Shown here piece after piece: positions 13,614 through 64,000 of a stretch of 64,000 bases of DNA. The stretch lies in IMG/VR virus record IMGVR_UViG_3300001200_000009; one strand, given 5' to 3'. The DNA is from a virus. The position numbers and the translations under genes were made by a program. The notes under the pieces were generated by a model. It worked only from the letters and a program-made list of their open reading frames with translations, was not told the origin of the DNA and ran no database searches. Positions within the stretch are counted from its first letter, which is position 1. Every line of letters starts with the position of its first letter.

Positions 13614-13694
13614 TTGGAACTCTCCTGTTATAAATACTTGGTAGTCGCGAAACGCCAATTTCCACTACTCTAGAGCTACAAGGAGCTGACCAGC

Positions 13695-14225
13695 ATGTAT
13701 ATTTATACGGTCTATAAGACAACAAATCTCATTAACGGCAAAATCTATATTGGAGTCCATAAGACCACCAATCCTGACGACTCGTATTTAGGTTCTGGGG
13801 TAGCTTTACGTAAGGCTATATTAAAATACGGAGTCCATAATTTCTCTAAGAGCATACTTCATGAATATGCTATCGAAGAATCTGCTTATATAAAAGAGTC
13901 AGCTTTAGTAGACAGAGCCTTCATCGCTCGTCGTGACACTTACAATATGAAAGTAGGAGGTATTGGAGGCTCAGGAAATTATGGTAGACCTCATTCAGAA
14001 GAGCACAAACGAAAAATTTCAGAAGCTCTTAAGGGAAAACCTGGTCCATTTGCTGGTAAAGCATTATCAGAAAGACATAAGAAAAGTTTATCAGCCGCGA
14101 AAAAAGGTAAATCTAACCACTTAAAGGGCTCTACCCAACCTAAGGTTGAATGTCCTCATTGTGGTAAAATTGGTGCAAAAACCGCTATGGGTAGATGGCA
14201 TTTCGATAACTGTAAATCGGCCTAA
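13695..14225 (+). mobile_element. Free-standing GIY-YIG homing endonuclease HEG1 (NUMOD3 plus C-terminal CPHC zinc finger)
   Basis: YTVYKTTNLINGKIYIGVH...YLGSG...YN; HSEEHKRKIS; CPHCGK..MGRWHFDNCK; antisense between gp15 and gp14. Confidence 0.9.
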
Positions 14226-15070
14226 AACGCTCCAAACGGATTATCTGGGTCGAATTCAATAATGTCTTCGGCCTCTAGTTCAATTTCATCGTTTGACTGG
14301 AATCTGTCATCAGTGTCAGCGATCATTAGAACCATACGCGATAGCTGAGTATCGCTTGAGACGATTGGAATGTCTTTTCTGAATGTAGCATATTCTCCAG
14401 ACTCGGATGTTACGTTCGCTACTTGAATTACAGTTCCATCGCTCTTAACTAATGTTCCGGTTACATTTCCATCTGGCTGAGTTTGCGAAATTGTCTCGCC
14501 AATCTTATAATTACCTGGCGAGTTAATCGTTAGGTCAACAGAGTTAGCCGATACGATGTTCGATACGTCAATATCCTCTTCAACGAAGTCCAGTTTCTCG
14601 TCATTATATTCGAACGCTGTCACGTTTAACTTGTAAACCGGCAGATTCTGTAACTGATAAAACGGCTCTTCATGCTCAACAAACGAAATAGTAAAGAGTG
14701 ACTTCGAGAATGGCACATAGATAAGGTCTCCCTCATGCGGTCTCTTCTGGTCCTCATGACAACCAACTGCGTCGTTCCAGCGCTTCTTTGAGACTACAAA
14801 GGTCGACTCGTCTTTAATCTCATATCCAAATTTTTGGAATAATTCTTCGCCATCATATCCAGCGACAGTCTCAACATACATCTCAATCTCATAAGATTGG
14901 TCAAAGTGAGACGCAATGTCCTCACCAAAGAGTTTATCGACGTTTACGACATTACGAGGGATGTAAAGAAAATCATGACCATAAATCTGTAGGGCCTCAA
15001 TGATAAGGTCCTCATACAGATTCTGTTCTGGCTCGTAGCCTTGTCTAGAGAAATGTGGGTTGGTTGACAT
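14222..15070 (-). CDS. gp14: Neck protein
   Basis: EQNLYEDLIIEALQIYG, RPHEGDLIY, EHEEPFYQL and NPFG motifs. Confidence 0.93.
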   Translation of the reverse strand: MSTNPHFSRQGYEPEQNLYEDLIIEALQIYGHDFLYIPRNVVNVDKLFGEDIASHFDQSYEIEMYVETVAGYDGEELFQKFGYEIKDESTFVVSKKRWNDAVGCHEDQKRPHEGDLIYVPFSKSLFTISFVEHEEPFYQLQNLPVYKLNVTAFEYNDEKLDFVEEDIDVSNIVSANSVDLTINSPGNYKIGETISQTQPDGNVTGTLVKSDGTVIQVANVTSESGEYATFRKDIPIVSSDTQLSRMVLMIADTDDRFQSNDEIELEAEDIIEFDPDNPFGAF

Positions 15071-15073
15071 GCG

Positions 15074-15841
15074 CTACCCCACAAAGAACATAGGAGGAGG
15101 TGTGTATCTGTCTTCTAGTTCTTGTTCAAGTTTTTCGATCGTTTCCTTGGCCTTTGCGATTATATCTTGTCCGTTAAACGTGACTCCACCAAGCATTTCG
15201 ACTCCGCTAAACTTAGATAGGTTCTGGCCCCACTGAAGTTCGATCAGAGCTGTTGCATATCTCTTAAGCCACGAGTCATTAAGGCCATAAGCGCCATCTT
15301 CTTCTGGGTCAACCGCAAGATTAACCACCATAACGATGTATTCGCCTTCGGCAATATCATTTTCCCAGTCCATTTGAATCTCTAGACGATTACGTCGGCG
15401 AGAGAACTCAACAATATTTCGACCATTTAGGGTGTCATTAAGAAAGTTGAGGTATTGTTTAGTCATAACGAAGTTTGAGATACCTCCACCTCGTCCGCTT
15501 AGACCGCCTGCACGTAGGTCAAAGATGTCATTAAGATGCAATTGATATTCGATATTGAACATACCAGAGCCTAGTCCGGTTGACCTAATAGGTAGAACAG
15601 ATTCGACCCTCAGAACATTTTGCGGAAGAACAATATAACCATTAGCCTTATCTGCTGCAGTGACCTGGTGTTTTACGACGGTCTCGTCTGAACCATCCAT
15701 GTGACGTTCATTCCATATTTGAATAGCTTCGTCAACCCGATCGTCTACTTGGGCAGGCGAAATGTTGATTTGAATCAATCCATGACCCAATTTACGAAGA
15801 CAATATTCTCCAAATTCTTTACGAGTTGTAATACTAGGCAT
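15074..15841 (-). CDS. gp13: Neck protein
   Basis: YCLRKLG, WLKRYATALIELQWGQNLSKF and PPMFFVG motifs. Confidence 0.93.
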   Translation of the reverse strand: MPSITTRKEFGEYCLRKLGHGLIQINISPAQVDDRVDEAIQIWNERHMDGSDETVVKHQVTAADKANGYIVLPQNVLRVESVLPIRSTGLGSGMFNIEYQLHLNDIFDLRAGGLSGRGGGISNFVMTKQYLNFLNDTLNGRNIVEFSRRRNRLEIQMDWENDIAEGEYIVMVVNLAVDPEEDGAYGLNDSWLKRYATALIELQWGQNLSKFSGVEMLGGVTFNGQDIIAKAKETIEKLEQELEDRYTPPPMFFVG

Positions 15842-18568
15842 TTGCTTCTAGTGCTTTAACCTTCTCATTTAGTTCTTTGAGTGAAGCCAGTAGGAGTGGA
15901 ACAAGCTTTTCATAAGAGACAGTTTTATAACCTTCCAGCTCCTGTCCAATAGCTTCAGGGAAATGCTCTTCAACTTCTTGAGCGATAACACCAACTTGTC
16001 TTTCTTTAGATACGATTCCAATTTCTTCGGCCTTGTCATTCCAATCATAATAGACTGGGTTAAGCTTTTCAATAGTATTTAGTCCTTCTATCGCCGCAAA
16101 ATCTTTCTTAAGATTTTTATCAGAGAAGGCTGTGATGTCACCGGTTGCAGTAAAGTTACCGGTTGCTTTAGCAAACGTAAATCTAGTAGTGGCATTATCT
16201 CTTACGAATAGATTTCCATTGTATAGGTCTACAAAATTAGATGAAGAGGTATGATGAATTCTCATGTCTGCAGAGTTACCAAGTCTAACTTGGAAACCAT
16301 CTTGCCATTCCGTATGTCCAAGCACATTGTCATCGGTATCAGAGCGAACAAAACTTCCAGCAGATTGTCCACCTAAGAAACCTGCATTGATGTTCTTAGT
16401 GTCCAAATAGGCAGTTGTGACAACAGCTTGAACTCTTGCTGTCGTATGATAAAGATTAGTACCTTCCGACAGATTTGAAGTAGAGAACCCGTTGATATTG
16501 GTGATATAGCCCTTCGACAGAATTCTGCTTTCGATAGCCGCCGCTGAAGCAAATACGCTATTTGACGTAGACCACGTCTCAGTCGATAATAGAACATCCG
16601 AAGCCAGAACCTTTTCAAATGTAATTGCCGGCAGTCTAGCGATGTTAAGGATTCCTGAAGTAATTTTTGAAGAATCAAGATTTGGAATACGGCTAGCGTT
16701 AAGAGTTCCTGAAGTAATTTGAGATGCTGGTAGAGCTGGAATTCTAGCAGCTGTTAAAACGCCCGAAGTAATCTTCGAAGCCGCAAGATTTGGAATACGA
16801 CCGGTTGCAAAAATCCCAGTAGTAGTTTTTCCTGCGTCTAAAGCTGGAATACGACCATCAGCAAAAGTCCCAGAAGTAATTTGAGTAGCCGGAAGCGCAG
16901 GAATTCTAGAGCTGATGGCGTAAATGTAGAAGGCTTGCCAGTGATATTAGCCCATGCTAGATAATATGCAGTTCCTTGCCCATTTAGAGTCGTAGCATTT
17001 ACTCCTCCAATGGTAGTAACCACCTCACCAGTAGTAGAGCCATTGAATACGAAAAACTTATCTTCCGATTCATCCCAATAAAATTGAGCATCAGTTAAAG
17101 AACCTCTACCGAATTTAATACCTGCATCAGTCGTTGGAGTACCTGTTTGGTCTTGGTTTAGATTAATAAAGCTGTCGCCAACATTGATTTCATTACTAGA
17201 TATGGCGTTAATTTCGCCTTGTACATTAAGGTCTCCCTGCACAGTGACATCATTAGCAAACGTTTGATTACCCGAGAGTCTTGCAAAAGAAGATGCATGC
17301 ACACCATCAACCGTATCTGCGTCTAGACCAGAGCCTGTTCCGTCATTTCCAGCATGCCAAACGATAAATCCATTTACGGAAATCGCATTTCCGGTAATTA
17401 CTGTGGTATCTCTTCCGGCCCATCCAGAAACCCAATTGTCTGGGGACGTGTTAATAGACATTCCAGATTCAGCATTAACATAGACCACTTCGGCGGTTTG
17501 ACCTACAGCGTGTGAATGCGATTCGCCAGCCGAAAGGATTAGATGATTACCATTACCCGTTCTCAGTTCTGAAGTAAGCATTTTACCAGTGGCTTGTAGG
17601 TCAGCACCTACGATATTGCCAGCAGCAGTTATATTTCCTGTGCCAGATAAGTCCGTTTTCACAGTCACAATCGAATTGCTAAGCTCTAGTCTTTCTTCGG
17701 TGGCGTTGTCGTCGATACCACGAGAAGTAAATGTGTTATTGAAAACAGCAGCACCGTCAACAGTTAAACTGCTTAAAGTCGTAAGGCCAGCTACGTCTAA
17801 CGTACCTGAAACCGTAGCGTTAGTAAAGTTTACAGTTGTGCCAGTCTGTAGATTGTAAATGTAGTTAATCGCCGCGACAATAGAATCATTATTTGAACCA
17901 AAAATTCCAGCATCAAGAGCAGTCAGTTCTCCAATTACTGTATTCGTATTAGACAAGTCCGCGGACAAATTGTTAAAGTCGGTTTTAACTTCATTCACAC
18001 CACCTCTAATCGTCTGAGAAGTAGTGATTAAAGTAGTTGATCGTCCTGACTGAATTCGATAATCATTCCATACATCTCTAAGACCGTCAGTAATATCTGT
18101 CGGAGAGGTTAAAAATCCATCGATAGTAAGATCGGATAAATTAGAATTTGGACCAACTCTAGTATCAAGAGCTACAGCAGCAGCATCGGTTTGAGCTAAA
18201 TCGGCTGACAAATCATTAACATCAGTCTTTAATTCATTAATGGCTGGAATTACTGATGTTGCGGCAGTAATAAACGTAGTGCCTCTACCCGTTACTGCAA
18301 CATAGTCACCCCAAAAGTTTCCAATGGCTTGAGTTACAATATCGCCCGTGACGATACCAGCAGTGTTCATTACATCAAAATTAGAATGCGGACCAACATA
18401 AATTTCGAGGTCATCGATACGTTGATCGTTAACATTAAGACCATCAATGATATCAGACGCAGTGTAAGAAAGCGAGCTAAAGTCGCCAATATCAGTAGCC
18501 AATAGGTTATATTTAGCAACCCATTGTTCTACTGTTTCGTAGTTATTTTCAATAATTCTAAGAGCCAT
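15834..18568 (-). pseudogene. Fibritin/fibre-like protein with C-terminal S74 intramolecular chaperone, interrupted by a frameshift near 16910
   Basis: Frame 1 (from 18568) reads ...ANITGKPSTFTPSA. The -1 frame is open from about 16946 to 15834 and reads SRIPALPATQITSG...SEGTNLYHT...TGDITAFSDK...GVIAQEVE...VSYEKLVPLL. Confidence 0.8.
16638..16907 (-). repeat. Five tandem 54-nt (18-aa) repeats RIPxLxAxxITSGxxxxx
   Basis: RIPALPATQITSGTFADG / RIPALDAGKTTTGIFATG / RIPNLAASKITSGVLTAA / RIPALPASQITSGTLNAS / RIPNLDSSKITSGILNIA. Confidence 0.9.
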
Positions 18569-23767: not shown

Positions 23768-23976
23768 TATTCTATATTCCAATCAACAATTTGTTTGGCC
23801 TGTTTAAGCGACGAGCCGGTGTCAACACCATTACCTAAATCGTCATAAACATTCCAATTGCCAGTATCTTCGGTTTTTTGGATAATCCACCCTCTATAGA
23901 TGTATCTACCGTATTCCCCGCCTCTTTTAAGTTTGTGCTCACGAAGAATTTGTTCTGCAGCTTCAGATAAATTCAT
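23767..23976 (-). CDS. Hypothetical protein, 69 aa
   Basis: TAATG-coupled on both sides; N-terminus MNLSEAAEQILREH. Confidence 0.6.
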   Translation of the reverse strand: MNLSEAAEQILREHKLKRGGEYGRYIYRGWIIQKTEDTGNWNVYDDLGNGVDTGSSLKQAKQIVDWNIE

Positions 23977-24779
23977 TATATTTTACTCTTACAATTATCC
24001 ATATGATATTTATACATGGCTGGGCCAGAACCTTTCTTAGAACAGTAAGGACATATCACCTTTTTGAAATTCTTTTTCTTACCTTTTTGACATCCAACAT
24101 ATACCCCAGGGACTTTCTTTTTACCCTTCATAGCTACTGAAATTTTAGCTTTAGACTCTTCACTATGAGAACTATTGATATTAGCTTTAGCTTCTTTTAT
24201 AGCTTTACAATGAGCTTTAGATTTTGTTTTACCACTAAGGGCCTTTGAAATTTTTTGACCTATTTCTTCTGTTTTTCTTTCAGTTCTATTTTTGTGTACC
24301 GCCCTTAGAGATTTTGCCCTATCTTCAATTTGTTTTGAGGTTTTGTTTTTGTTGTATCGCCTTAATCCTTCGGAATGCTTGGTTTTCCATTCTTCCGATC
24401 TGTTCCTTTTTAGGTAGACAGAATTATCTCTCTGAGCGGCATGCAACTTCATTTTAGCTATAGACTTTGGGGTGTGTTTACCCGTAAAGCCTAATATATT
24501 TCCATTTGGGCCTCCCGGAACTAAATTATAATTGTTTTTTTCTAAGCAAAATTCTTTAGTTACAATTTCAGCTTCTTTATCATATGCCTCTTGTAAAGTG
24601 TCAAACTTGTAGAGAATTTTTTTAGAGAAATTACCTTTTCCATACTTCTTTATAGCTTTAGAAATAGCATTTCCGGACCCCATATAACTGTCTTCAGGAT
24701 TCTTGGTTTTATGAACTCCTATATAAATTTTGCCGTTTATAGTATTTGTTGTTTCATAGACTGTATAATATGTTTTCAT
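23976..24779 (-). mobile_element. GIY-YIG homing endonuclease HEG2 (co-oriented; NUMOD3 repeats plus zinc finger)
   Basis: YTVYETTNTINGKIYIGVH, YMGSG and CPYCSK..YHMDNCK motifs; TATAAATA at 24785-24792, 5 nt before ATG. Confidence 0.9.
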
Positions 24780-24797: not shown

Positions 24798-26375
24798 TCA
24801 GACCTGAATTACGAGTTTGATGTCTTCTGTTTGGTCTGGAGCTCTTGAAACCGCGACACGATTTTCAAGATAAAGGACTGTACCTGAGTATTTATCGAAT
24901 TCGCCAGGAGTATTTGAAGTAGCAATTGTGCCAGCCGAAACGCCTGTTCCAGTTAAAGCCTCCCCATCAGAGAAATCTACAAATCCAGTGTCATCATTTT
25001 GATGATAATAAAGAGTTTCGGTATTTGCGTCATAGTAGTCTATGATAGCCTTCGCGCCTGATGAAGCACCAGTGATTACATCATCAAGAACCCATGTTCC
25101 AGATGGCTGAACTGTATGAGACTCAAGAGCAATACCGGTAGTTTCTGTGAATCCTGAAGCAGGAGAACCCTTAAGCGGATTCTTAATAATTGTTAACTGA
25201 CGATAGTTGTTTGCTGGAATAAAGTCACCATTGAATCCATCAACCGGATTTTCATCACCCTCTAGAACGATATTGAACATTAAGAAATAAGCGTTAAGTT
25301 CTAGAAGAGGATTATAGCCAAATCCACCTTTAGCTGTTGTATATTGAACATTGAGTTCAGCTTCGGTACCAGCAGTAGAAAATGTCGGAATAGCCTTCGC
25401 TTCAGTATAGCCATATCCTGGAGTATCGATTACTACAGAATTCTGAATCGATCCACCAACAACCGTTGCTGTAGCTGTAGCTCCAGTACCATCACCATTA
25501 ATATCTAAAGCCAATGAACCATTCGTGTATGACGACCCACCTGAGACTACCTCTACTCCTTCAATTTCTCTTCCTAGAGACGTAGGAGATACAACTGCAT
25601 TAGCAATAGCTGGGGTTGTGGGCGACCCACCTGAGATAGCAACCTTCGCGTAAGTATATCCTGAACCGTAGTTGGTTATCGCAATATTAGTTATTACGCC
25701 ACCAGAAATAGTAGCAGTAGCAGCCGCTCCTGTTCCGTTACCAGTGATCGAAATAGTTGGTGTAGAACCATATCCTGCGCCTTGTTCAGTTAAAACAACA
25801 TCAAAGATTTGTCCAGCTGTCGCATTGGCAGCCACGAATTCGTTTCTGAAAACTGGCATAAAGTCATTTGTTAGATATTTTTGAGCGTCAACAGCCGAAA
25901 TAGTGTATAGATATTTCCAAATGTAACCATCAGCTCCTAGAACGGGTTGTGCAATACCTTGGTCGGTTTGAACACCAGTTCCGTTATCGTCAACTCCAAG
26001 CGGCTCAACAGTCGAAGAACCAGCACCAGCCTTTAGACAGATGTAAACATTAAAGTTGTTTTGGTTAATGACATAATACTGTTTGGTATGAAGGTCTGCG
26101 TCTGCGTCGTCATAAGCTACAAAAGTTTCACCAGCTTTCCAGTTATATCTTGGAGCACAAGGCGTAACGTCAACAATTCTCTTAATCGATTGAAGTCCAT
26201 GACGAACTCTTAGAGAATCTTGTGGTGCAACAGTAGGTTGTGGTGGTTGAAGGTCATTCTCCCATGGCTCAGAACGGCCAATGCCAAGGTAATATAGGTC
26301 TTGGCCCAATGTTACTCGGTTGAAGATGCCTGATAGGTTATCGAATCTAAACCGATCGGTAATAATTGCTGTCAA
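24798..26375 (-). CDS. gp8: Baseplate wedge subunit (TTG start)
   Basis: TAIITDRFR, YLGIGRSEPW, DGYIWKYLYTI and QTEDIKLVI motifs. Confidence 0.9.
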   Translation of the reverse strand: MTAIITDRFRFDNLSGIFNRVTLGQDLYYLGIGRSEPWENDLQPPQPTVAPQDSLRVRHGLQSIKRIVDVTPCAPRYNWKAGETFVAYDDADADLHTKQYYVINQNNFNVYICLKAGAGSSTVEPLGVDDNGTGVQTDQGIAQPVLGADGYIWKYLYTISAVDAQKYLTNDFMPVFRNEFVAANATAGQIFDVVLTEQGAGYGSTPTISITGNGTGAAATATISGGVITNIAITNYGSGYTYAKVAISGGSPTTPAIANAVVSPTSLGREIEGVEVVSGGSSYTNGSLALDINGDGTGATATATVVGGSIQNSVVIDTPGYGYTEAKAIPTFSTAGTEAELNVQYTTAKGGFGYNPLLELNAYFLMFNIVLEGDENPVDGFNGDFIPANNYRQLTIIKNPLKGSPASGFTETTGIALESHTVQPSGTWVLDDVITGASSGAKAIIDYYDANTETLYYHQNDDTGFVDFSDGEALTGTGVSAGTIATSNTPGEFDKYSGTVLYLENRVAVSRAPDQTEDIKLVIQV

Positions 26376-26411
26376 AATTTTATCCTTATAAATATATTGA
26401 GGAGTTCATCT

Positions 26412-27020
26412 ATGTTTATTTATACGGTCTATAAGACAACAAATTTAGTAAACGGCAAAATTTATGTCGGGGTTCACAAAACTAAGAACCCTAATGACTC
26501 GTATTTAGGGTCTGGCAATCAAATCAAACGAGCAATTGAAAAATATGGCGCAGATTCATTCTCTAAAGAAATACTGTTTGAATATGCCGATAAAGATTTA
26601 GCGTATGCTAAAGAGGCTGAAATTGTAAACGAAGAATTTTTATTAAGAGATGACGTGTATAACCTTTGTCATGGTGGTAAAGCATTTAAAGGGATGTTAG
26701 GTAAGACTCATACTGAGGAACACAAACAATATCTCAGAGAATTGTCTACCGGTAAATTACATACCCAAGATGCCAAAGACAAAATGCGACAAAATGCTTC
26801 TAAACATTGGGAAGGTAAGAAATTTACTGAATCCCATAAAAGCAAAATGGCCAAGGCAAAACAAAAACGAGTTGAAATAGACGGAATTGAATTTGACTCA
26901 ATGACTGCTGCTGCCAAGCATTTTAATAGAGGCGGAGCTGCTATCCGATTCTGGATTAAGAAGGGTAGAGGAAAGTTTATCTTGGAAGAAGTAGATTTTC
27001 CCATCCTTTTCCATCTTTAG
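26412..27020 (+). mobile_element. GIY-YIG homing endonuclease HEG3 (NUMOD3 plus NUMOD1/HTH)
   Basis: MFIYTVYKTTNLVNGKIYVGVH; IDGIEFDSMTAAAKHF; GAGGAG SD; own promoter TATAAATA at 26387-26394. Confidence 0.9.
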
Positions 27021-41882: not shown

Positions 41883-41911
41883 TATAAATACTTTCATGCA
41901 ATGTATTTATA
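41883..41911. promoter_or_regulatory. Interlocked face-to-face late promoters (+ 41883-41890, - 41904-41911)
   Basis: TATAAATA on both strands between the divergent gp4 and gp2-like genes. Confidence 0.8.
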
Positions 41912-48665: not shown

Positions 48666-48695
48666 ATTATATAACAACTCCAATAGATTGTAAAC
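48666..48695 (-). promoter_or_regulatory. Early promoter for gp33 (leaderless), back-to-back with the HEG4 late promoter at 48697-48704 (+)
   Basis: GTTTACA-N17-TATAAT, ATG 6 nt downstream. Confidence 0.8.
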
Positions 48696-48710
48696 GTATA
48701 AATAAAATAA

Positions 48711-49280
48711 ATGAGATATACAGTTTACAGAACGACGAATTTGGCCACCGCTAAAATTTATATAGGCGTCCATAAGACGCTGGACCCGAATGATGCATAT
48801 CTCGGGTCGGGGTCTACCATGCTTTCCGCTATTGCCAAATACGGTAGAAGCCAGTTTTCGAAAGAAATTCTGTTTGATTTCGAAACTTCAGAAGAGGCTT
48901 ATGCTAAAGAAGCGGAGCTCGTAACTGAAGATTTTGTAGCTCGAGACGATAATTACAACATAAAACTAGGTGGCGGAAGTCTATCTAGACATTCCAAAGC
49001 AACAAGGGCTAAAATGTCTAAGGCTAAACTGGGCAATAAGAACTCTTTAGGGCATAGACATTCCGTTGAATCCAAGAAACTTATGTCTCAGGTTAAAATT
49101 GGTAATACATTCGCCTCTGGAAATTTAGGCAATAAGCGCTCTAAAGCAACCAAAGACGCCATATCAAGGGCAAATTCTAAATCAACAATCGTTAAAGGGC
49201 TTCAGTTCAAATCTAGAACTGAAGCCGCAAAGCATTTTAACGTATCTCCAACAACTATTGGTAGATGGCTTAAAGCCTAA
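48711..49280 (+). mobile_element. GIY-YIG homing endonuclease HEG4 (NUMOD3 plus HTH)
   Basis: YTVYRTTNLATAKIYIGVH, YLGSG and FKSRTEAAKHFNVSPTTIGRWLK motifs. Confidence 0.9.
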
Positions 49281-51207: not shown

Positions 51208-51212
51208 CAAGA

Positions 51213-51243: not shown

Positions 51244-51245
51244 GA

Positions 51246-55401: not shown

Positions 55402-55847
55402 TAGGATTTGTCCTTCTTAGGTAGAAGGTCAGGAAATGCTTTACGCACTTGTGAAGCCGTTACCCGCGGGTATAGCGCCTTAACGTGATATTCCTTACAC
55501 TCTTTGTTTGTTTTAGTAGACGCCGCAATTAGAAGCGCAGCATCTTTAGGATGGATAGCTTCCAGCATTCCAAGAAATCTTCGTTCTCTTGCTGGGGCGT
55601 TTAAACGAGATTCGCCGATAAAGATGCCCATCCCTTTGACTTTGCGATGGTATGATTCGGCAAATAGGTCTTTGTCCATTGGAATAAACGGCGGGGGCGT
55701 GTCTGGCAAATTCATTACCATATCGTCGTTAAATAGGAGAACCAGCATTTGCTGTAGTCCTATGCAGTCGTGTTCTTTTAGAACTTCGGCTGGCTTCTTT
55801 GCGGCTTGTGCGAGTTCAAATATCTCGCAAACTTCTTTACGGCTCAT
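55401..55847 (-). CDS. Conserved T4-like hypothetical protein
   Basis: LPDTPPPF, RERRFLGMLEAIHPKDA and AFPDLL motifs; typically follows rnh. Confidence 0.8.
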   Translation of the reverse strand: MSRKEVCEIFELAQAAKKPAEVLKEHDCIGLQQMLVLLFNDDMVMNLPDTPPPFIPMDKDLFAESYHRKVKGMGIFIGESRLNAPARERRFLGMLEAIHPKDAALLIAASTKTNKECKEYHVKALYPRVTASQVRKAFPDLLPKKDKS

Positions 55848-56725
55848 TAAAGCGTTCCTTGTTTAAAGTCATTCATATCGTTCAGCAGATTGCCAGCACG
55901 ATTTTTGATTAGGTAATTCATGACACCTCCAAAGTTTGGAAGCTCGTACTCATCGTACTGCTTCATGACTTCGGCTTGGATTTCGTCAGGAATCATTGTG
56001 AAATCCATCAGCTTTTTATTTCGCATAAATGCAGACCACTGTTCAGGCGGTAGATAGGATTCGAGATTGTTACGATTTTCCCACAGGTCAGCAAGTCGCT
56101 TCTTTGAGACCGCTTTTTGACGACCAACATCCTCACCGTCTACTTTGCGCTTATAGAAATCATGAGGTGAGAAGATGTTTGGAACACCATCTTTACCTTG
56201 GCCCTTAACGCACTGTTCGAATAGCCATAGATGAGGGTTCTTTTCCTTCACCATTTTCTTTGTCAGTGTAGAGATTTGTTTAACGTTCGAATGAACTTGA
56301 AGCTGTTTGTAATCTCCATCGGAAGCCACGATAAGAACAGGCTCAGATTTTCCAAGCTCCTGTGTAGACTGAGCAAGGGTTGCAATGATGTCATCAGCTT
56401 CAGCTCCTTTATGTTGGATTACTTTCCAAGGAATATAGGTGCGAATTTCGTCAGTAACCTTATTGACGATTTTGAACATCTCTTCCCAGTTGATTGAAGA
56501 CTCATCGCGACCTTTCTTACGAGAGTATTTGTAGAACTCGTAATAGGTCTTGCGCCATGAAGAGTGGTCGCAACAGATAACCATTTGGCCATACTTGTCA
56601 CGATTTTTCTTGTTGTACGCGCGAAGGGAGTTTAGTATCATGTGACGAAGTAGATTTTCGTCTGGTGGGAGCCTTTGGGATGCTATATTACCTATAGAAA
56701 TTGCGGAAAAATCTACCAATATCAC
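55847..56725 (-). CDS. rnh: T4 RNase H (5'-3' exonuclease), GTG start MILVDF
   Basis: LRHMILNS, WRK..YK, EADDII, SDGDYKQLQ and DGVPN motifs. Confidence 0.93.
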   Translation of the reverse strand: MILVDFSAISIGNIASQRLPPDENLLRHMILNSLRAYNKKNRDKYGQMVICCDHSSWRKTYYEFYKYSRKKGRDESSINWEEMFKIVNKVTDEIRTYIPWKVIQHKGAEADDIIATLAQSTQELGKSEPVLIVASDGDYKQLQVHSNVKQISTLTKKMVKEKNPHLWLFEQCVKGQGKDGVPNIFSPHDFYKRKVDGEDVGRQKAVSKKRLADLWENRNNLESYLPPEQWSAFMRNKKLMDFTMIPDEIQAEVMKQYDEYELPNFGGVMNYLIKNRAGNLLNDMNDFKQGTL

Positions 56726-56796
56726 TGTTACGTTCCTATTCTTATAAATAATTTTACCTATGGACAACTATTTATAATCAAAAAGAAGCCATCTTA

Positions 56797-57525
56797 ATGT
56801 ATATTATATACCGAACCACCAATAATGTAAACGATAAAATTTATATAGGAGTTCATTTCAGAGTCGAGAATGATGATAAGTATTTAGGCTCTGGAACTCT
56901 CCTTAACAAAGCTATCAAAAAATATGGCCGTAAAAATTTCTCAAGAAAAACATTGTTCGAATTTGAAACTGAAGAAGAAGCTTATCTAAAAGAAAAAGAA
57001 ATTGTTAACTCAGAGTTTGTAAAAAGACCTGACACTTATAATCTATGCGAAGGTGGCAAATATAATGGAGTTCCTAGTAAGGAAACTAGAGCTAAAATGT
57101 CTGAATATGCCAGAAACAGACCCAAATCACACAATCTTTCCATATCAGAAACTAAAAAATTATCAGGTTCTGCGCGGGGCAAAAACAACGGAATGTACGG
57201 TAAATCGCATTCTGAAGAAGCTAAGGCGGCGATGTCCAGAGCTCGCAAGGGGAGAAAGCTCACTAAAAAATGGAAAGAAAATATTAGTAGAGCGTCTACT
57301 GGGCGATATCACTCTGAAGAGACTAAACGACTAATGAAAGAAAATGCGACAAAGCCATGGCTAGGAAAAAACCTTTCTGTGTCTCATAAAGCCGCGATTT
57401 CAAAAGCTCAAACAGGAAAAACACTTATTCGGAAAGAACGAACTTGTCCTCATTGTGGAAAAGTCGGTAAGGGAGGTAACATGGCCAGGTATCATTTTAA
57501 GAACTGTCATTTGCTGCGAGAATAG
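56797..57525 (+). mobile_element. GIY-YIG homing endonuclease HEG5 (NUMOD3 repeats plus zinc finger)
   Basis: YIIYRTTNNVNDKIYIGVH, NNGMYGKSHSEE and CPHCGK..MARYHF motifs; own promoter TATAAATA at 56743-56750. Confidence 0.9.
56803..56832 (-). promoter_or_regulatory. Consensus early promoter embedded antisense in HEG5 codons 3-12, pointing at rnh
   Basis: GTTTACA-ttattggtggttcggta(17)-TATAAT. Confidence 0.75.
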
Positions 57526-57727
57526 CTGGGTGATTAGTGTTTACCATACCAGATTCAATCCATTGCTCTAGTGGAATGAGAGGTTCTAGTCCTGGTTGTG
57601 CTTCGTATTCCTCGATGACTTCATCAGGAATTACAGCAGCTACTCGTGAAAATCCAGGCTTCTCAAGTTCGATGATTGTATTTTCAGCTTTGTGCCGTCT
57701 CATAATGTAAGTCATACAATCTCGCAT
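57497..57727 (-). CDS. Hypothetical protein
   Basis: Preceded by an early promoter at 57748-57777. Confidence 0.6.
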   Translation of the reverse strand: MRDCMTYIMRRHKAENTIIELEKPGFSRVAAVIPDEVIEEYEAQPGLEPLIPLEQWIESGMVNTNHPAILAANDSS

Positions 57728-57731
57728 AAAA

Positions 57732-57777
57732 AATCCGATTATGAGATATTATATCATAATCGGATTGCGTTGTAAAC
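57732..57777 (-). promoter_or_regulatory. Early promoter whose -10 sits in the loop of a 13-bp terminator-like inverted repeat
   Basis: AATCCGATTATGA-TATAATATC-TCATAATCGGATT-TTTT; GTTTACA lies 17 nt upstream of TATAAT. Confidence 0.8.
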
Positions 57778-57791
57778 TGTTTATTTTGCTA

Positions 57792-58238
57792 TTACGAGAG
57801 GCCAGACATGAAATCGCCGTGCGCCGAGGATACTGATTTCATAGACTTTTTATGGTCTATTTTCTGCCTCTTAGCCCGTTGCGCGTCTACATATCTTTGA
57901 TCCTCTATTTTGACCTTGTCCAGTCGAGCAAAAATTTCAGTTTTAGGAGATACGATAAAGTTTTTCTTTGCTAATCCCTTAAAGCGCCGCTTTAAGTCTT
58001 GTAAGTCTCTGATGGCTGAACCTTTCCTATAGCCAGGAGAAGCCGCTAATGTCTCGTCGCTTAGCGGCTTCCAAGTCAAAAGACCCATGTAAATCTTCGG
58101 GTTGGTTGCTGTCCGCCATCTTCCATTTGACGTAGTTGCCTCATCTGTAAGGTCATATCTTACGATGGCATATTCTTTTGAAGATTCGACTATTTGTTTA
58201 TAAGCTTCGGCAATTGTTCTATGTGTATTACTTGGCAT
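57792..58238 (-). CDS. Putative internal head protein, start MPSNTHR
   Basis: N-terminal HRTIAEAYKQIVE motif shared with neighbouring genes. Confidence 0.6.
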   Translation of the reverse strand: MPSNTHRTIAEAYKQIVESSKEYAIVRYDLTDEATTSNGRWRTATNPKIYMGLLTWKPLSDETLAASPGYRKGSAIRDLQDLKRRFKGLAKKNFIVSPKTEIFARLDKVKIEDQRYVDAQRAKRQKIDHKKSMKSVSSAHGDFMSGLS

Positions 58239-58806
58239 TGAGATAATCCTTAAATCCATAACTTACTTCGTATAATACAACAGTATGGGCGTTTTGTAAA
58301 CTCTCTTTTAAACTTTCTTTTACATCTCCGTCGTCACCTAGTTCTGGGATATCGTCAATCTCAGGGTTAGCGTCTTGAGCTGCAATGGCTGCGTTAGTCT
58401 CATCGTCTCTGTCGTCCGGATGAGTATCATTTGGCTGTAGGTCTAATTGAGCGGTACCAGGCTTTTGGTCTTTGGTGTATTTTCTACGACGAAGAACACG
58501 AGTAAGGAACGATAGTTTCTTAGGCTCAGCTCTTAGGACTCTATTAACTCTAAATGAGCGCCAATCCTTTTTAACGAGGTCGAATACGGCAAGGTTACCT
58601 GGTGGAATGTTTGAAGGACCACCCTTAGGATGATTCTTTTTTGGAATCATGTCCATGCGTCTTGTGCAATACATGATTCGGTCTTTTTCGGTTGATACCT
58701 TACGGAAGGAAACAACTACAGTCCCCTTAGCCAATAGTCTACGCAATTGGCTCACAGTATATCCTTCGAGAATATACTCGACTGAACCTTCCGTAAGGGT
58801 AATCAT
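58228..58806 (-). CDS. WYL_2/Sm-like (DUF2693-type) domain protein
   Basis: VVSFRK...RIMYCT...VFDLVKKDWRSFR motif. Confidence 0.75.
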   Translation of the reverse strand: MITLTEGSVEYILEGYTVSQLRRLLAKGTVVVSFRKVSTEKDRIMYCTRRMDMIPKKNHPKGGPSNIPPGNLAVFDLVKKDWRSFRVNRVLRAEPKKLSFLTRVLRRRKYTKDQKPGTAQLDLQPNDTHPDDRDDETNAAIAAQDANPEIDDIPELGDDGDVKESLKESLQNAHTVVLYEVSYGFKDYLNAK

Positions 58807-58807
58807 T

Positions 58808-59218
58808 TTATCGGCGCGGCTCAGAATCAGCTACACGAGGTCCGTTAGGTCCTCTTCGTGCATGAATATCGTCATTGGTAAGGTCTAGCCATTCGTTTAG
58901 TTTCGCATCTTTTTTAGCGCCAGAATTGTCATTTCCTTCAGCGTCTTTTTGGAAGCCTTCTTCCATTTCTTCTTTGTCCTTATCGGCTGGTTTATCGTCT
59001 CCGCCATCATCAGCTTTTGGCTCTTTGAATGCTTTTTTAACGGCACGCTCTAGGCTATCGGCTTTCTTGACAAGGTCTTTGGTTTTGTCATTACCTTCTA
59101 GCATGTCGCCAAGTTCGTTAATGCATGAAAGCATTTGACGCATCGAGGCAGCTGCTGTTTCTTCGGTAATCATTGTTGTGTAAGCCTCAGTAAGGCTACG
59201 GTGTGCTTTGTTGTCCAT
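58808..59218 (-). CDS. Putative internal head/scaffold-like protein
   Basis: HRSLTEAYTTMITEE N-terminus; highly charged. Confidence 0.6.
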   Translation of the reverse strand: MDNKAHRSLTEAYTTMITEETAAASMRQMLSCINELGDMLEGNDKTKDLVKKADSLERAVKKAFKEPKADDGGDDKPADKDKEEMEEGFQKDAEGNDNSGAKKDAKLNEWLDLTNDDIHARRGPNGPRVADSEPRR

Positions 59219-59240
59219 TGTGTTTTCCTTAACTTAAGAC

Positions 59241-59879
59241 TTATTGTGTTGAATTTGGAAGATTTTTAAACATTTGTTTAGAGCCTCCACTTAGTTCGTG
59301 GGCTAGACCTAAAAGAGCTGGCCAGACTTCCAAGCCAGCAGCTTCTTTATTACTGGTTTGGTAAATTTCTTTTCCGTTTAAATTAAACCTATAAGAACCA
59401 CCAACACTTTTAACTTCTAATTTTCCAATAGAATATTCTTTTGTGGCGACAATTTTCTCTTCAGTAAAATTTTTACCCGGTTCTTCCATTACTGTTGAAG
59501 GAGTTTGATGATTGTAATCTTTTCCGTTTTTACCTCCAAGCATATAAGCTGCTCCAAGAGCATCATGTAATTTTGGCGGAAGCTCTTCAACTCCCATATA
59601 TTTGCGAGCAATATTTAAAAGCGCCTGCTCGAACGGAATAGGCTTATTAGACTTACGCGGTCTTTGTCGCATTGTATTTCTAGCTGTTTGACGAGCTTCC
59701 ATATCTCTTGGAGCTTCTTTAACTACTGGTGCTGGTCGTCTAGACCGATAAGCTTTACGCCTACCTCTAGCGCTTTCGGTTGACCGGCCGTAGTAGCCTT
59801 CATTTAGAGTTTTATCGGCGTTTCTTTCTTCTTGAAGAGCACGATAAGCATTTACGATGCCAACATGATTTTTACCCAT
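59241..59879 (-). CDS. Putative internal head protein, basic
   Basis: HVGIVNAYRALQEE...LNE N-terminus followed by an Arg-rich region. Confidence 0.6.
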   Translation of the reverse strand: MGKNHVGIVNAYRALQEERNADKTLNEGYYGRSTESARGRRKAYRSRRPAPVVKEAPRDMEARQTARNTMRQRPRKSNKPIPFEQALLNIARKYMGVEELPPKLHDALGAAYMLGGKNGKDYNHQTPSTVMEEPGKNFTEEKIVATKEYSIGKLEVKSVGGSYRFNLNGKEIYQTSNKEAAGLEVWPALLGLAHELSGGSKQMFKNLPNSTQ

Positions 59880-59919
59880 TGATAGTGTACCTTTAGATTT
59901 ATTAAAGTATAAATACTTT

Positions 59920-60546
59920 ATGATTCAATATATTTATAAGACTACTAACTTAATAAACGGCAAAATATATGTCGGAAAACATCAGGCCGAAACGCTAGAT
60001 AATTCCTATTTAGGCTCTGGTGACCTTATCAAAAAGGCTATCAGAAAATACGGAAGAAAATCTTTCAAAAAAGAAATTCTTGAAATTTGTAATTCTTCGA
60101 TTGAAGCCTATGACAGAGAAGCTAAAATAGTTAACGAAGAATTTATCGATAGAACCGATACATACAACTTAAAAATTGGAGGCGAAGGCGGTTCGGGAAT
60201 TACTCCATGGAATAAAGGAAAAACACTACCTCAAGAAATGAAAGATAAAATTTCCAAAACATTAACCGGTAGAGTTCAGCCCAAAGAAGAAATAGATAGA
60301 AGAGCTGCAGCTATGATTGGAAGAACTCATTCAAACGAAACAAAGCTTAAGATGTCTAGAGCTAAGTTAGGAAAAAAATTTACTGAATCACATAAAAATA
60401 AGTTGTCACTGGCCGCAAAAAATAGAAAATCACATGGAAATCAGGGCAAGAAAAATAAAGTCGTCGAATGTCCTCATTGTAAAGTTAAAGGAGGGGCAGG
60501 AGTTATGAAGAGATGGCATTTTGATAATTGCAAAACTCTTCCTTAA
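59920..60546 (+). mobile_element. GIY-YIG homing endonuclease HEG6 (NUMOD3 plus zinc finger)
   Basis: YIYKTTNLINGKIYVGKH, PWNKG and CPHCK..MKRWHFDNCK motifs; TATAAATA at 59908-59915. Confidence 0.9.
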
Positions 60547-60949
60547 GTAGAGAAATATGCCTTGAGTGTATCTTTACCCCGATAAATTCATTATAATAAT
60601 CGTCTTTGAAGAGAACTTCGCGGTCGATTTGTTCCTTAAGTTCGATGTAAGACATCTCACCCTTGGCTTTACAGAGCCTCAAAATATCTCGACGATATCT
60701 TTCAGCTCCGTTGGTCTCGATGTCCTCTTGAAGGGACTTTGACGAGCCGTAATACTTTGGCCAATCAGAAGGAACCCGTGTTTTGATTCTTCTTTTACGT
60801 CTAGAATTCTTTGGGAGTATTTTTGGCTTCCAAAAAAGTTTCTTGCCAACATATTTCTTGTCTGTGACAGTGTCCGTGATTAGATAAACAAATCCGACAA
60901 ATTCTTCCGGTGTTTCAGTGAACACCTTATCCTCATAGTACCATGTCAT
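60503..60949 (-). CDS. Conserved T4-like GIY-YIG nuclease (resident gene, not a member of the HEG family)
   Basis: GFVYLIT...KKYVGKK, SDWPKYYGSS and YYN..I motifs; leaderless late promoter at 60956-60963. Confidence 0.85.
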   Translation of the reverse strand: MTWYYEDKVFTETPEEFVGFVYLITDTVTDKKYVGKKLFWKPKILPKNSRRKRRIKTRVPSDWPKYYGSSKSLQEDIETNGAERYRRDILRLCKAKGEMSYIELKEQIDREVLFKDDYYNEFIGVKIHSRHISLLKEEFCNYQNAISS

Positions 60950-60958
60950 ACGATTTAT

Positions 60959-61435
60959 TTATACGTCCGAATACGTGAAACGGGTAGGTACCGTACGCAG
61001 CTTAAGGTCCATTGCAATAAGCAATCTGTGATTACCTTCATCTAACCAAGCCTCGGTGTCACCAGTCTGCTTGTTTCGCGACATATGAATAGTCACGGCT
61101 TCTTTAATTCCATTAGCTTGTATGTCTTTCTTAAGCCTAGCAACTTCGTCGTCAGACCTATTGCTTCGCTCTGAACGGTCGAATTCGCGGTATGGATAAA
61201 TAGTGGCTGGTTTAGCTTTGATAACAGTTCGTTCAGACAAGGAAATTTGATGATATGAATACATTTCGATGATAGTCTCAAGGTCAAATTTTCGACCCGG
61301 CCATATACTGTTGACTGACTTCATAAACGGTCTGAGATTTTGCACATCCTTAAAATCGTCAACCCGTTGGCCTTTGAATTTAACTCTAGGCCTACGACCT
61401 CCAGTCTTTTCTGTGAAGAATTCTCTAAAGCTCAT
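60959..61435 (-). CDS. ParB/Srx-like domain protein, possible internal head protein
   Basis: LKKDIQANGIKEAV...EGNHRL...VP; N-terminal MSFREFFTE. Confidence 0.75.
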   Translation of the reverse strand: MSFREFFTEKTGGRRPRVKFKGQRVDDFKDVQNLRPFMKSVNSIWPGRKFDLETIIEMYSYHQISLSERTVIKAKPATIYPYREFDRSERSNRSDDEVARLKKDIQANGIKEAVTIHMSRNKQTGDTEAWLDEGNHRLLIAMDLKLRTVPTRFTYSDV

Positions 61436-61484
61436 TTAATGTTACCTAGTCACACATGTTAATAATTACCAGTATAAATACTAT

Positions 61485-62108
61485 ATGCTTATTTATACCG
61501 TCTACAGAACTACAAATTTAGTTAATGGAAATATATACATAGGGGTTCACAAAACTTCTGACCCAAACGACTCATATTTAGGTTCAGGTAAACTTATTTC
61601 TAAGGCTGTTAAAATTTATGGCAGAGAAAATTTCGCAAAAGAAATACTTTTTGAATTTGACAATAAATCAGACGCTTATGCTAAAGAAGCAGAGCTCGTA
61701 ACTCCCGATTTTATAAAAGAAAGAACCAATTATAATATAGCTCCTGGCGGCAAAGGAGGAATATTATGGAATTGTGATAATCATCCGACTAAAGGTAAAA
61801 AACACTCTCCTCAAGCGATAAAAAATATGTCCATTGGTTCTATTGGTCAAACATCTGGATTAGAGAATTATCAGTTTAAGGGATATTACAAACTTCCTAA
61901 TTGCGACATTTTGTTTGAAACTTCTGGTAAAGCTGCTGAATATTGTGGTATGGCTTCAAGCAATATTAGAAGAATTTGCAAAGATAAACTAGACCTAAAG
62001 GTTACACCAGTGTCTTATCGGTCAAACAGATATATAACCTCCTTAGGCAATAAAGAAAATGTCGTCGGTAAAACTCATAGAGAATTAGGATTTGATTTTA
62101 AAATTTAG
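61485..62108 (+). mobile_element. GIY-YIG homing endonuclease HEG7
   Basis: MLIYTVYRTTNLVNGNIYIGVH, YLGSG and FETSGKAAEYCG motifs; TATAAATA at 61473-61480. Confidence 0.9.
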
Positions 62109-63838
62109 TCGCACATCCGACAGTCACCAGTTGAAGGAGCGATTCCTTTTTCGCTGTAGAGATAGTAGAGCGATAGAACATTTTCATTGTTGAACGCTTC
62201 CTGATGGACTTTGGCGATATAAACCGGGTCTTCATCACCAGAGAAGAACAAATTGATTGATTGTCCTTGACAGATGAAGGGTTGCCTACTAGCCGACAGT
62301 CTTACCAATATCTCTTGAGGGATTTCAAAAGCTGTCTTAAAGACTCTTAATTCATGGGCAGTAAAGAAGTCGAGATGCTGGATTGAACCACCGTTTTCTC
62401 GTATAGATTTCCTTACCTCATGAGTATATTTATTGTACCGTTTCAGGTGAGGTATTAACGCAGGGTTAATGCGATTGATATCAGGACCGGCGCCTTCATG
62501 AGTGTAGGCATTTTTATAGAATGGTGAAACACCAGGCGAAACTGAATAGCAGATAAGAGAAGTCGTCATCGTTGGTGCAATTGCGGTTCGATGCGAATTG
62601 CGGTAACCTAAACCTTTACACCACTTCGGTTCACCGGCTATTCCAGCCATCCATTGAGACGCTGCAAGAGACTGTTCATCGATAAGCTTAAAGATGTCTC
62701 GATTAAGCTTGTTCAGACGAGAGTATTCCATGACATCTTGCGGGTCCATCGAAATCATGTTGTTCTGCAGATAGGTATGGAATCCAAATACGCCTAACCC
62801 AAGAGCACGGAAGTCTTCGGTAAATTTGACGGCCTTCTCAAGACCTACTAGCTTCTTGCCTTTACGAATAAAGTCTTCGGCCACACAGTCAAGGAAGACT
62901 GTTGAGATGTGGACCGCGTCGGTGTCTTTCCATTCGTCAAACAGAACTAGGTTCAGTGACGATAAAACACAGGTGAATGTATAATTTTCGTCACATGGCA
63001 ACATAATCTCGGTGCACAGGTTTGAATTCTTGATGCTGATACCTGAAGCCTTAACTGCAGGAGGAGCCTGTCTGTTGGCCTTGTCTGGGAAGAAGTAGTA
63101 ACCTTTGCCTCGAACAAGCTTCAAGTATTGGGCTTCTTGCAGATGTTTGTTGGTCTTCTTGTGTCCCTTACGGAGATTTTCGATATCCTTGTCGTAGACA
63201 TTCCAACCGATATTGTATTTCTTAGGCTTTTTCCATACCATATTCCAGATATCATCAAAGTCTCTTGTCATTAGGTCAGTGTACCATGCACCAGAACCTC
63301 TACGTCCTGGTTGTCGCACTTGTTCTACTGCTCTGGCTTGTTGGTCGATAACCGGCCCTTGTCCATCAGCCTTACCACCACCAGCAAAACTCTTGCCGCG
63401 CGTACGTACGTCGCCAACATAACCACTAGTTCCAAATCCATTCTTTGAAAGTAGAGCTACTTCTCTGGCGTGATTGAAGAACCCATCAACCGAGTCAGGC
63501 ACATACCCACCTGAGCAGGAAACTGAACAGCCCTTATCGGTCCCGGTATTCATCATGACTGGAGTCGATGGTGCAAGCCAACCCTTCCAAAGGATATCGA
63601 AGAAATGCTTCTTCCAAGATTCACCTTTGTATTCACCATAAAGGTCATCGCCAACCGCTCCAAGCGTATCGGAGATACGGGTCAGTTGTTCTTTGTAGGT
63701 GTCACAATCATAGAGGTATTGCTCCATAAAGGTCATGTACCCGATTGTTGTCATCCATTTTGGAATGTCACCATTTTTCTGAGCTTCCCGTCTCTCAGTA
63801 CCCCATTTGTAAAGTTCGCTGTCTTTATTCTTAGTCAT
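62105..63838 (-). CDS. nrdA: Class I ribonucleotide reductase alpha subunit (short, no ATP cone)
   Basis: PSTPV..N, SCS, SNLCTEI, CVLSSLN, AIAPT, ICQGQSINLF, SLYY and C-terminal CRMCD motifs. Confidence 0.93.
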   Translation of the reverse strand: MTKNKDSELYKWGTERREAQKNGDIPKWMTTIGYMTFMEQYLYDCDTYKEQLTRISDTLGAVGDDLYGEYKGESWKKHFFDILWKGWLAPSTPVMMNTGTDKGCSVSCSGGYVPDSVDGFFNHAREVALLSKNGFGTSGYVGDVRTRGKSFAGGGKADGQGPVIDQQARAVEQVRQPGRRGSGAWYTDLMTRDFDDIWNMVWKKPKKYNIGWNVYDKDIENLRKGHKKTNKHLQEAQYLKLVRGKGYYFFPDKANRQAPPAVKASGISIKNSNLCTEIMLPCDENYTFTCVLSSLNLVLFDEWKDTDAVHISTVFLDCVAEDFIRKGKKLVGLEKAVKFTEDFRALGLGVFGFHTYLQNNMISMDPQDVMEYSRLNKLNRDIFKLIDEQSLAASQWMAGIAGEPKWCKGLGYRNSHRTAIAPTMTTSLICYSVSPGVSPFYKNAYTHEGAGPDINRINPALIPHLKRYNKYTHEVRKSIRENGGSIQHLDFFTAHELRVFKTAFEIPQEILVRLSASRQPFICQGQSINLFFSGDEDPVYIAKVHQEAFNNENVLSLYYLYSEKGIAPSTGDCRMCD

Positions 63839-63890
63839 TAGGATTTATTCCTTATAAATATAATATCTATTGGTTCATCAAGGAGATGAA

Positions 63891-64000
63891 ATGTTTATCG
63901 TTTACGAAACTACAAATCTTGTTAACAATAAGATTTATATTGGCGTTTCTGGTACTGGGGACCCTAAATATTTAGGGTCCGGTATTGCCTTAAATAAAGC
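63891..64000 (+). mobile_element. GIY-YIG homing endonuclease HEG8, 5' part only (runs off the window)
   Basis: Manual translation MFIVYETTNLVNNKIYIGVSGTGDPKYLGSGIALNK; AGGAG SD; TATAAATA at 63853-63860. Confidence 0.85.

Follow-up and report, generated by a model that had tools for sequence, protein, structure and literature searches.

The 64,000-nucleotide viral sequence IMGVR_UViG_3300001200_000009 (the window, by which we mean this whole stretch) is a segment of a T4-like phage with 42% G+C that contains eight related genes for GIY-YIG homing endonucleases (homing endonuclease genes, HEG1 to HEG8). PHROG 314 (homing endonuclease) was matched by all seven complete HEG open reading frames (ORFs) scanned (E 2e-36 or better), NUMOD3 was detected in four of the seven using Pfam, and the Tyr, Glu and Asn of GIY-YIG are common to the complete HEGs, in which Y7, Y18, G20, E68 and N84 are invariant. 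The ORF of HEG8 starts at 63891, leaves the window and matched the GIY-YIG motif pattern. Seven of the eight HEGs lie on the plus strand within blocks of minus-strand genes, as an earlier reading of this DNA from its letters alone (the sequence-only reading) had reported, and the genes behind these backwards HEGs include, according to PHROG, gp15, a gp8-type wedge gene, gp33, an rnh-type exonuclease gene and nrdA. The first codons of HEG1, 3, 5, 6 and 7 carry promoter sequences on the opposite strand that point outward and face the HEG's own late promoter, and these sequences are the subject of this analysis.

A late promoter box, TATAAATA, was found upstream of every HEG at a distance of 12-66 nt (66 nt in HEG1, 25-54 nt in HEG3, 5 and 8, and 12-14 nt in HEG2, 4, 6 and 7). 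In T4, transcription starts about 5 nt downstream of the late box. HEG2, 4, 6 and 7 are therefore probably leaderless, and where a HEG has no leader, a facing box necessarily falls in its first codons. The 12-14 nt spacing (boxes at 24785, 48697, 59908 and 61473) recurs in many related HEGs. On the minus strand, the four exact reverse late boxes TATTTATA that had been placed in HEG1, 3, 6 and 7 are all present, as is the early promoter GTTTACA-N17-TATAAT in HEG5, which belongs to the same class as the other minus-strand TTTACA-N17 sites of the window. The accompanying claim that the neighbours of the late boxes are late genes, tentative for HEG6 and HEG7, stands for gp15 and the gp8-type gene, which were assigned using PHROG; the gene at 59879 has no PHROG family and that at 61435 has weak hits only, and the temporal class of both is left unassigned. 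Further, rnh has an exact late box in the gap between it and HEG5, and the last codons of HEG2 contain a forward late box; both are absent from the sequence-only reading. The coordinates are collected in Table 1.

To estimate how often such motifs arise by chance, the proteins were held fixed and codons were resampled from HEG codon usage in 20,000 draws. At least four of eight HEG starts carried a late box with P = 0.018; the HEG5 early promoter had P = 0.065 as a hexamer pair and 0.012 for its exact codons. The window-alone signal is suggestive and modest, being post hoc and drawn from paralogous genes, and relatives are therefore needed to make the case. The motifs of HEG3, 5, 6 and 7 might be by-products of Ile-Tyr-rich N-termini in AT-rich DNA, with HEG1 alone functional, as is suggested by single-case probabilities of 0.25-0.34 for the late boxes and 0.065 for the early promoter. 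Against this, multiplication of the single-site probabilities of HEG3, 6 and 7 gives 0.006.

Relatives were collected using the codon-neutral GIY-YIG start pattern I-Y-x-[VI]-Y, which in complete scans yielded 108 distinct HEGs from 70 viral and 93 metagenome stretches. The exact reverse late box was present in 61 of 74 HEGs that follow a hairpin leader and in 1 of the 34 others. Many of these 34 are barred from the box by their amino acids; ten x-I-Y relatives are able to carry one, and the single one that does is divergent. Among the hairpin-leader HEGs, the Tyr codon at the box is TAT in 68/74, compared with 40/74 at the Tyr three codons further on. We concluded therefore that, for the type with a hairpin leader, the claim that the reverse boxes are under selection holds. 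Starts of the type Y-I-Y-K, as in HEG6, gave a different picture: among the matches listed, 31 of 106 contain the box and only 3 of these are called divergent, the rest being mostly co-oriented or without an orientation call. We regard this as background, and HEG6 alone is thus uninformative. A reverse sigma70-type promoter with at most one mismatch was detected in 19 of 372 distinct HEG starts and an exact one in 2 of the 372, a rarity that speaks against a by-product. In its favour, the motif I-[IV]-Y-x-T-T-N-x-V-N by itself sets the 17-nt spacing of the hexamers, with most sites in the same register. The sigma70-type cases belong mostly to one clade and thus represent few events. Taken together with the spacing of native facing boxes considered below, these data leave the by-product explanation improbable.

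The orientation of these relatives was called from the longest upstream ORF or tRNA, which left 32 of the 74 hairpin-leader copies without a call. The box was found in 27 of 31 divergent and 7 of 11 co-oriented hairpin-leader HEGs (p = 0.17); of the four co-oriented copies without it, three seem to have been assigned to this type wrongly but were kept in the count. Insertions were divergent in 31 of 42 hairpin-leader HEGs, and co-oriented in 21 of 25 others (4/25 divergent; p = 5e-6, uncorrected for kinship). In many HEGs of the family a tRNA gene stands directly ahead, nearly always in the same orientation.

At HEG1 the reverse box forms part of a cassette of about 83 nt, which the sequence-only reading did not record, in the order own late box, stem with a 3-nt bulge, inner stem-loop, short linker, ribosome-site stem, start codon and reverse box. 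Any gp15 transcript at this locus must cross the cassette on the minus strand. A leader-only pattern, blind to promoters and coding sequence, recovered 126 loci from an estimated 670 stretches, of which 109 were distinct and 100 could be parsed, 9 being dropped as non-matching. The hexamer TA[TC]TTA occurred within the first 16 nt of 94 of the 100 parsed cassettes but in none of 56 control ORFs taken from these loci. It was spread over the three reading frames (74/10/10) and lay 4-6 nt from the end of the leader RNA in 87/100; the own late box preceded the first stem by 3-5 nt in 88/100. For about half of the 44 downstream proteins searched (of 55 available), Pfam gave HNH, GIY-YIG, TnsA-like, NUMOD3 or zinc-finger domains; the remainder had no match. 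With covariance model R1, the HEG1 leader was the only significant match in the window; the HEG3 leader gave a weak, non-significant hit (15 bits, E 0.15). R1 matched 20 of 47 other loci tested and none of five cultured-phage loci, and no copy was found when cultured phage records were searched with one cassette. A ribozyme or other known RNA family was also considered for the leader and found no support in Rfam, which gave no match at the gathering score in seven loci and the window, and none in ten loci at E up to 1.

For the structure alignment, 60 of the 100 copies were used, 59 of them distinct, and written as the outward strand. In this alignment 99.8% of 1003 cells pair and 9 of 17 pairs show two-sided changes, with a covariation of 0.50 compared with 0.16 in shuffles and at most 0.12 in slid controls. 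Helix 1 is partly fixed by the search pattern, whereas the other two helices are not. The two main stems contain 83 G-U pairs when read on the outward strand and 0 on the sense strand, 13 of them in the long stem (four columns) and 70 in the ribosome-site stem (mostly one column). The outward strand was the more stably folded in 64 of 64 copies, and the bases complementary to the ribosome site are located in a loop of the outward fold. Because of the covariation and the G-U asymmetry, we assign the fold to the outward strand. Bases of the bulge and linker are conserved beyond the needs of pairing. This might indicate that the nuclease binds the outward RNA as a scaffold in an RNA-protein complex, or that the inverted repeats serve as a DNA operator. 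The same leader, however, precedes at least three unrelated nuclease folds, and the G-U asymmetry argues for an RNA of one strand rather than a DNA palindrome; we consider both ideas highly improbable.

Among 64 copies with enough flanking sequence, the reverse box was present in 27/28 divergent and 17/18 co-oriented cassettes and in 15/18 without an orientation call; for seven co-oriented neighbours the strand was confirmed by PHROG hits on the cassette strand. Since the box is kept in either orientation, it is a property of the element and not of the neighbour. The sequence-only reading had given the box a role for the neighbour only and had named equal frequency in co-oriented HEGs as an outcome contrary to it, and this part of the claim is not supported. 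A stronger termination by the hairpin in co-oriented copies was not supported either, as the U-content of the tail did not differ by orientation (p = 0.65).

A separate clade, M-S/P-E-S (eight loci), has backwards HEGs behind one long perfect hairpin. Their first codons contain a reverse late box together with a reverse TTGACA-N17-TA[CT]AAT, and the gap to several of the neighbours is too small for a promoter.

We tallied 83 divergent loci, in which 13 structural neighbours were recognized by PHROG or from the record. The late box of these 13 was found in the HEG only in 7 (four gp15, gp8, gp6 and one tail tube), in both places in 3 and in the gap in 3, one of the last being T4 segD, which has a relaxed hexamer but no exact box in its codons. 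For gp15 and gp8 of the window, the nearest exact late box further upstream is 10.4 kb and 7.2 kb away, respectively, with relaxed variants closer. We concluded that the promoters embedded in the HEGs are probably genuine and in many cases supply the neighbour.

The claim that the insertion had displaced a promoter of the neighbour was not borne out for gp15, the neighbour examined. In 64 distinct HEG-free gp15 loci (at most 47% identical; no closer HEG-free relative was found), gp15 abuts the upstream gene in 55, the gp14 junction, and an exact late box within 100 nt of gp15 was found in 0/64 (a 7-mer in 10/64); the insertion therefore displaced no gp15 promoter. It broke a coupled gp14-gp15 junction, to which the cassette gives a new start. 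Searches found no close relatives of rnh. Among sequencing runs, three DNA runs of one sample contain the stretch and may be its source, and no RNA run was listed with it. The contigs of these three runs include no HEG-free allele, and the letters of 12000-16890 and 55500-64000 are unchanged in them.

The same data bear on persistence by dependence, in which the HEG holds a class-matched promoter that the neighbour needs, such that loss of the HEG 5' end is lethal. This agrees with the seven structural neighbours whose only nearby late box lies in the HEG, and the logic is the one accepted for T4 segG and others (PMC2988022; here and below, published systems are compared as described in the accessible parts of the cited texts). 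None of the 83 divergent loci has good sigma70-type sites in both places (13 loci have one in the gap and 9 in the HEG), but about 1.4 coincidences are expected and the result is not significant. Against dependence, the box persists in the 17 of 18 co-oriented cassettes whose neighbour cannot use it. Further, the operons run on the same strand and no minus-strand terminator-like site was found within HEG1, 3, 5 and 6 (a weak one was found in HEG7), so that read-through to the neighbours is possible. For rnh, a further early promoter lies 1 kb upstream. A clean deletion rejoins the operon and restores the ancestral gp14-gp15 junction, and nrdA behind HEG8 has no promoter in the gap or in the HEG. 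Since the operon would be whole again after a precise deletion, the HEG is locked in at most against partial decay, and we consider the persistence, or addiction, of the sequence-only reading unlikely. We regard the outward promoter as an integral part of the element and not as a hostage displaced from the neighbour and matched to its class.

Matching of the embedded promoter to the temporal class of the neighbour likewise does not hold as a rule. Of 17 replication or metabolism neighbours, 4 (DnaB, UvsY, rnh) are faced by an embedded sigma70-type promoter, compared with 0 of 13 structural ones (p = 0.11). The genes opposite reverse late boxes include rnh, ssb, DNA polymerase, DnaB and UvsY, and such boxes face early genes as often as late ones. 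In three cases rnh has one early and one late signal, the one missing from the gap being located in the HEG: in the window the late signal is in the gap and the early one in HEG5, and two other loci show the reverse. This complementarity counts in favour of dependence and is in line with motA-less T4-like phages, in which middle genes have paired early and late promoters (PMC2984593).

The spacing of the facing boxes was 17, 23, 26 and 30 nt in HEG pairs with short leaders. A native pair of facing late boxes in the window, between gp4 and a divergent plus-strand gene, has the same geometry with a spacing of 21 nt (41883/41904), and the gp53/gp4 facing pairs of two cultured phages are 15 and 19 nt apart. 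This similarity is a further point against a by-product. Transcripts starting at the predicted sites would overlap by 55 nt at HEG1, 42 nt at HEG5 (from the early promoter), 14 nt over the ribosome site at HEG3, 7 nt at HEG6 and 1 nt at HEG7. Pairing of the two RNAs is thereby a plausible mode of control for HEG1, 3 and 5, and promoter competition for HEG6 and 7.

On this basis, we propose that both facing late boxes would fire late in infection. At HEG1, HEG3 and HEG5 the outward RNA would cover the ribosome site of the HEG and hold down the DNA-cutting enzyme, and at HEG6 and HEG7 restraint would come from competition for the same DNA. Lacking a strong terminator, the outward RNA would run on into the divergent neighbour and restore the expression lost when the backwards insertion split the operon. 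The arrangement may thus be a means of tolerance, through which a backwards insertion costs the phage little, and not an addiction; tolerable backwards insertion fits the excess of divergent insertions among cassette HEGs. We put at roughly 0.55 the probability of this reading, in which outward promoters in the first codons, facing the HEG's own late promoter, restart a split operon and restrain the nuclease.

The outward promoter might instead serve the nuclease's self-restraint only, through antisense RNA or occlusion of the HEG promoter, with the neighbours supplied by read-through from upstream. Retention of the box regardless of orientation and the antisense-strand fold with its anti-ribosome-site loop would be expected in this case, and in five loci a reverse late box faces a neighbour that owns a sigma70-type promoter in the gap. 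However, no strong terminator follows the hairpin, and cassettes are enriched in divergent insertions. As an efficient terminator would cut off gp15, gp8 and gp6, the outward RNA probably runs into the neighbour, and restraint as the sole function seems distinctly unlikely.

Several points weigh against the combined restart and restraint that we favour. Outward transcription is predicted from the DNA, and the lack of a U-content difference gives no clue to how the outward RNA ends. In the inner stem, the pair that closes the loop speaks for the sense strand (15 vs 6), and the HEG1 leader alone folds no better than shuffles (z about 1). HEG3, 5, 6 and 7 showed no hairpin RNA with covariance model R1, and their boxes rest on modest statistics. 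Among divergent relatives outside the cassette type, the exact box was present in 1 of 4 with the I-Y-x-[VI]-Y start and in 1 of 3 with Y-I-Y-K among the matches listed; an embedded late box is also missing from two cultured phages in which a HEG of this family lies backwards, and the codons of T4 segD (NC_000866) have no exact one. All counts are of sequences, not independent events, and a tree of 149 N-terminal domains built using a quick method was too poorly resolved to tell whether HEG3, 5, 6 and 7 descend from ancestors with a cassette.

A broader version is more tentative, and we rate it somewhat below even odds. At least three unrelated nuclease folds in uncultured T4-like phages would share a portable RNA-OUT that silences the nuclease, leads essential genes and permits backwards insertion, to which the GIY codons would add an in-register early promoter for replication neighbours.

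Table 1. Positions of the HEGs, their promoter boxes and adjacent features in the window
Feature	Position	Strand	Basis or remark
HEG1 control cassette, predicted two-hairpin outward RNA between facing late boxes	13626..13708	-	covariance model R1, 52.3 bits, E 7.6e-13
Reverse late box, HEG1 codons 2-5	13700..13707	-	
HEG1 own late box TATAAATA, adjoining gp15 ribosome site	13629..13636	+	
HEG3 facing late boxes	26387..26424		26387-26394 (+); 26424-26417 (-, codons 2-5)
Facing late boxes in HEG5/rnh gap	56743..56776		56743 (+); 56776-56769 (-)
Sigma70-type early promoter consensus, HEG5 codons 3-12	56803..56832	-	
HEG6 facing late boxes	59908..59938		59908 (+); 59938-59931 (-, GIY-motif codons)
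HEG7 facing late boxes	61473..61497		61473 (+); 61497-61490 (-); predicted start sites coincide
Native facing late boxes, divergent gp4/plus-strand pair	41883..41911		short-leader HEG geometry
Next early promoter upstream of rnh	57748..57777	-	could reach rnh by read-through
HEG1, GIY-YIG-type nuclease with NUMOD3	13695..14225	+	PHROG 314, E 6e-52; Pfam NUMOD3
HEG2, co-oriented, likely leaderless	23976..24779	-	own late box 24792-24785
HEG2 forward late box in last codons	24007..24014	-	T4 segG-like arrangement
HEG3	26412..27020	+	PHROG 314
HEG4, without reverse box	48711..49280	+	
HEG5	56797..57525	+	PHROG 314
HEG6, likely leaderless	59920..60546	+	
HEG7, likely leaderless	61485..62108	+	
HEG8	63853..64000	+	own late box 63853-63860; no reverse promoter for neighbouring nrdA (62105-63838, -)
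gp15, tail sheath stabiliser	12807..13613	-	PHROG 227; predicted AUU start, 8 nt after GGAG; homologue starts
gp8-type baseplate wedge gene	24798..26375	-	PHROG 438; predicted UUG start
gp33 intergenic early promoter and HEG4 own late box	48666..48704		48695-48666 (-); 48697-48704 (+)
rnh-type 5' exonuclease	55847..56725	-	PHROG 107; predicted GUG start

Three of the seven genes behind backwards HEGs appear to use non-AUG starts: gp8 UUG (26375), rnh GUG (56725) and gp15, which has no in-frame AUG where one is expected and whose AUU (13611-13613, minus strand) aligns with the Met of its homologues. The letters of these starts are identical in contigs of the same sample. The early promoter ending at 48666 lies 7 nt before the likely gp33 start (48659), which points to a leaderless mRNA. 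A ninth, shorter GIY-YIG-like ORF (60503-60949, minus strand; PHROG 447 and 7363) overlaps HEG6 at its end, and a late box of its own lies at 60956. Short matches to HEG starts elsewhere in the same long contigs of the three runs suggest that the family has three or more further members beyond the window. A permuted tmRNA of alphaproteobacterial type (50864-51246, minus strand; Rfam RF01849 and RF04321) hints at the host group and contains an exact late box at 51213. A 50-base stretch (16861-16909) assembles in each of the three runs at double the depth of the flanking sequence and is probably repeated elsewhere in the genome.

Retention of HEGs through embedded promoters is already in print for T4, in which promoters within segG, segA, segE, mobB and mobC favour retention (PMC2988022). 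The HEGs of the window resemble these in that the promoter of a phage gene lies within the HEG coding region. They differ from the co-oriented T4 promoters (PMC2988022) in that those of HEG1, 3, 5, 6 and 7 are on the opposite strand, in the first codons and facing the HEG's own promoter, and that of HEG1 heads a conserved RNA that folds in the antisense direction. HEG2 represents the co-oriented T4 type: its forward 3' box stands ahead of a 10-kb structural block, and in T4 segG TATAAATA lies 103 nt before the end of the gene. In the C-terminal motif M-Y-K-Y-H of HEG2, 24 of 25 homologues have Arg at the position of Lys, a change that spells the forward late box, which was found in 0/25 of the homologous motifs. 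The only backwards HEG named for T4 is segD (PMC2988022), a GIY-YIG gene that, like those of the window, lies backwards between essential late genes (PMC2988022; NC_000866). Unlike them, segD has no late box of its own, and the late box of gene 24 lies in the gap (NC_000866).

Hairpins that sequester the ribosome site and are combined with a late promoter are described for I-TevI/II/III, segB, Aeh1 mobE and the nucleases of fractured genes in GOS (PMC2988022, PMC2677866). As in the I-TevI, segB and mobE leaders, late promoter and hairpin travel with endonucleases of more than one family. In those, however, the promoter lies inside a hairpin of the mRNA, so that late transcripts lack its 5' arm (PMC2988022, PMC2677866), whereas the cassette leader lies downstream of its promoter and its G-U pairs favour the opposite strand. 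R1 did not match seg43(25) of Aeromonas phage 25. In another T4-like phage, S-PM2, an expressed antisense RNA of about 225 nt (CfrI) overlaps a HEG and links psbA with the nuclease gene (PMC2984593); it is likened here by its description only. In the literature covered, outside which most subscription papers fell, we found no description of first-codon reverse promoters in backwards phage nucleases or of the leader RNA. A term search in PMC10690425 and PMC10448857 returned nothing relevant in the accessible text, and the supplementary lists of candidate phage RNAs in PMC10690425 or the motif figure of PMC2677866 may hold the leader.

The T4 genome has one backwards HEG, which is treated as an oddity, whereas seven were found in 64 kb of this phage; the tolerance of backwards insertions in tightly packed operons would be accounted for by outward promoters in the first codons. 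The cassette is further a clear case of codons constrained, in three reading frames, by a promoter on the other strand, and its RNA, a family absent from Rfam, can be tested using T4 late transcription in E. coli. The closest likeness in organization is to the pIN/pOUT RNA-OUT system of IS10 and to Pout of IS481, in which an outward promoter at the start of the enzyme gene faces an inward one (PMC1994261, PMC11774165). There, the transcripts overlap by 35 and 19 nt, compared with 55, 42 and 14 nt predicted in the window, the RNA blocks translation and read-through can affect neighbours (PMC1994261, PMC11774165). A structured antisense RNA, as in IS10, is predicted for the HEG1-type cassette only. 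Unlike IS10 and IS481, which combine host promoters with a transposase, the HEGs combine phage late promoters with homing nucleases of several folds and a leader without an Rfam match. Phage nucleases would thus gain a two-way control of the kind used by IS10.

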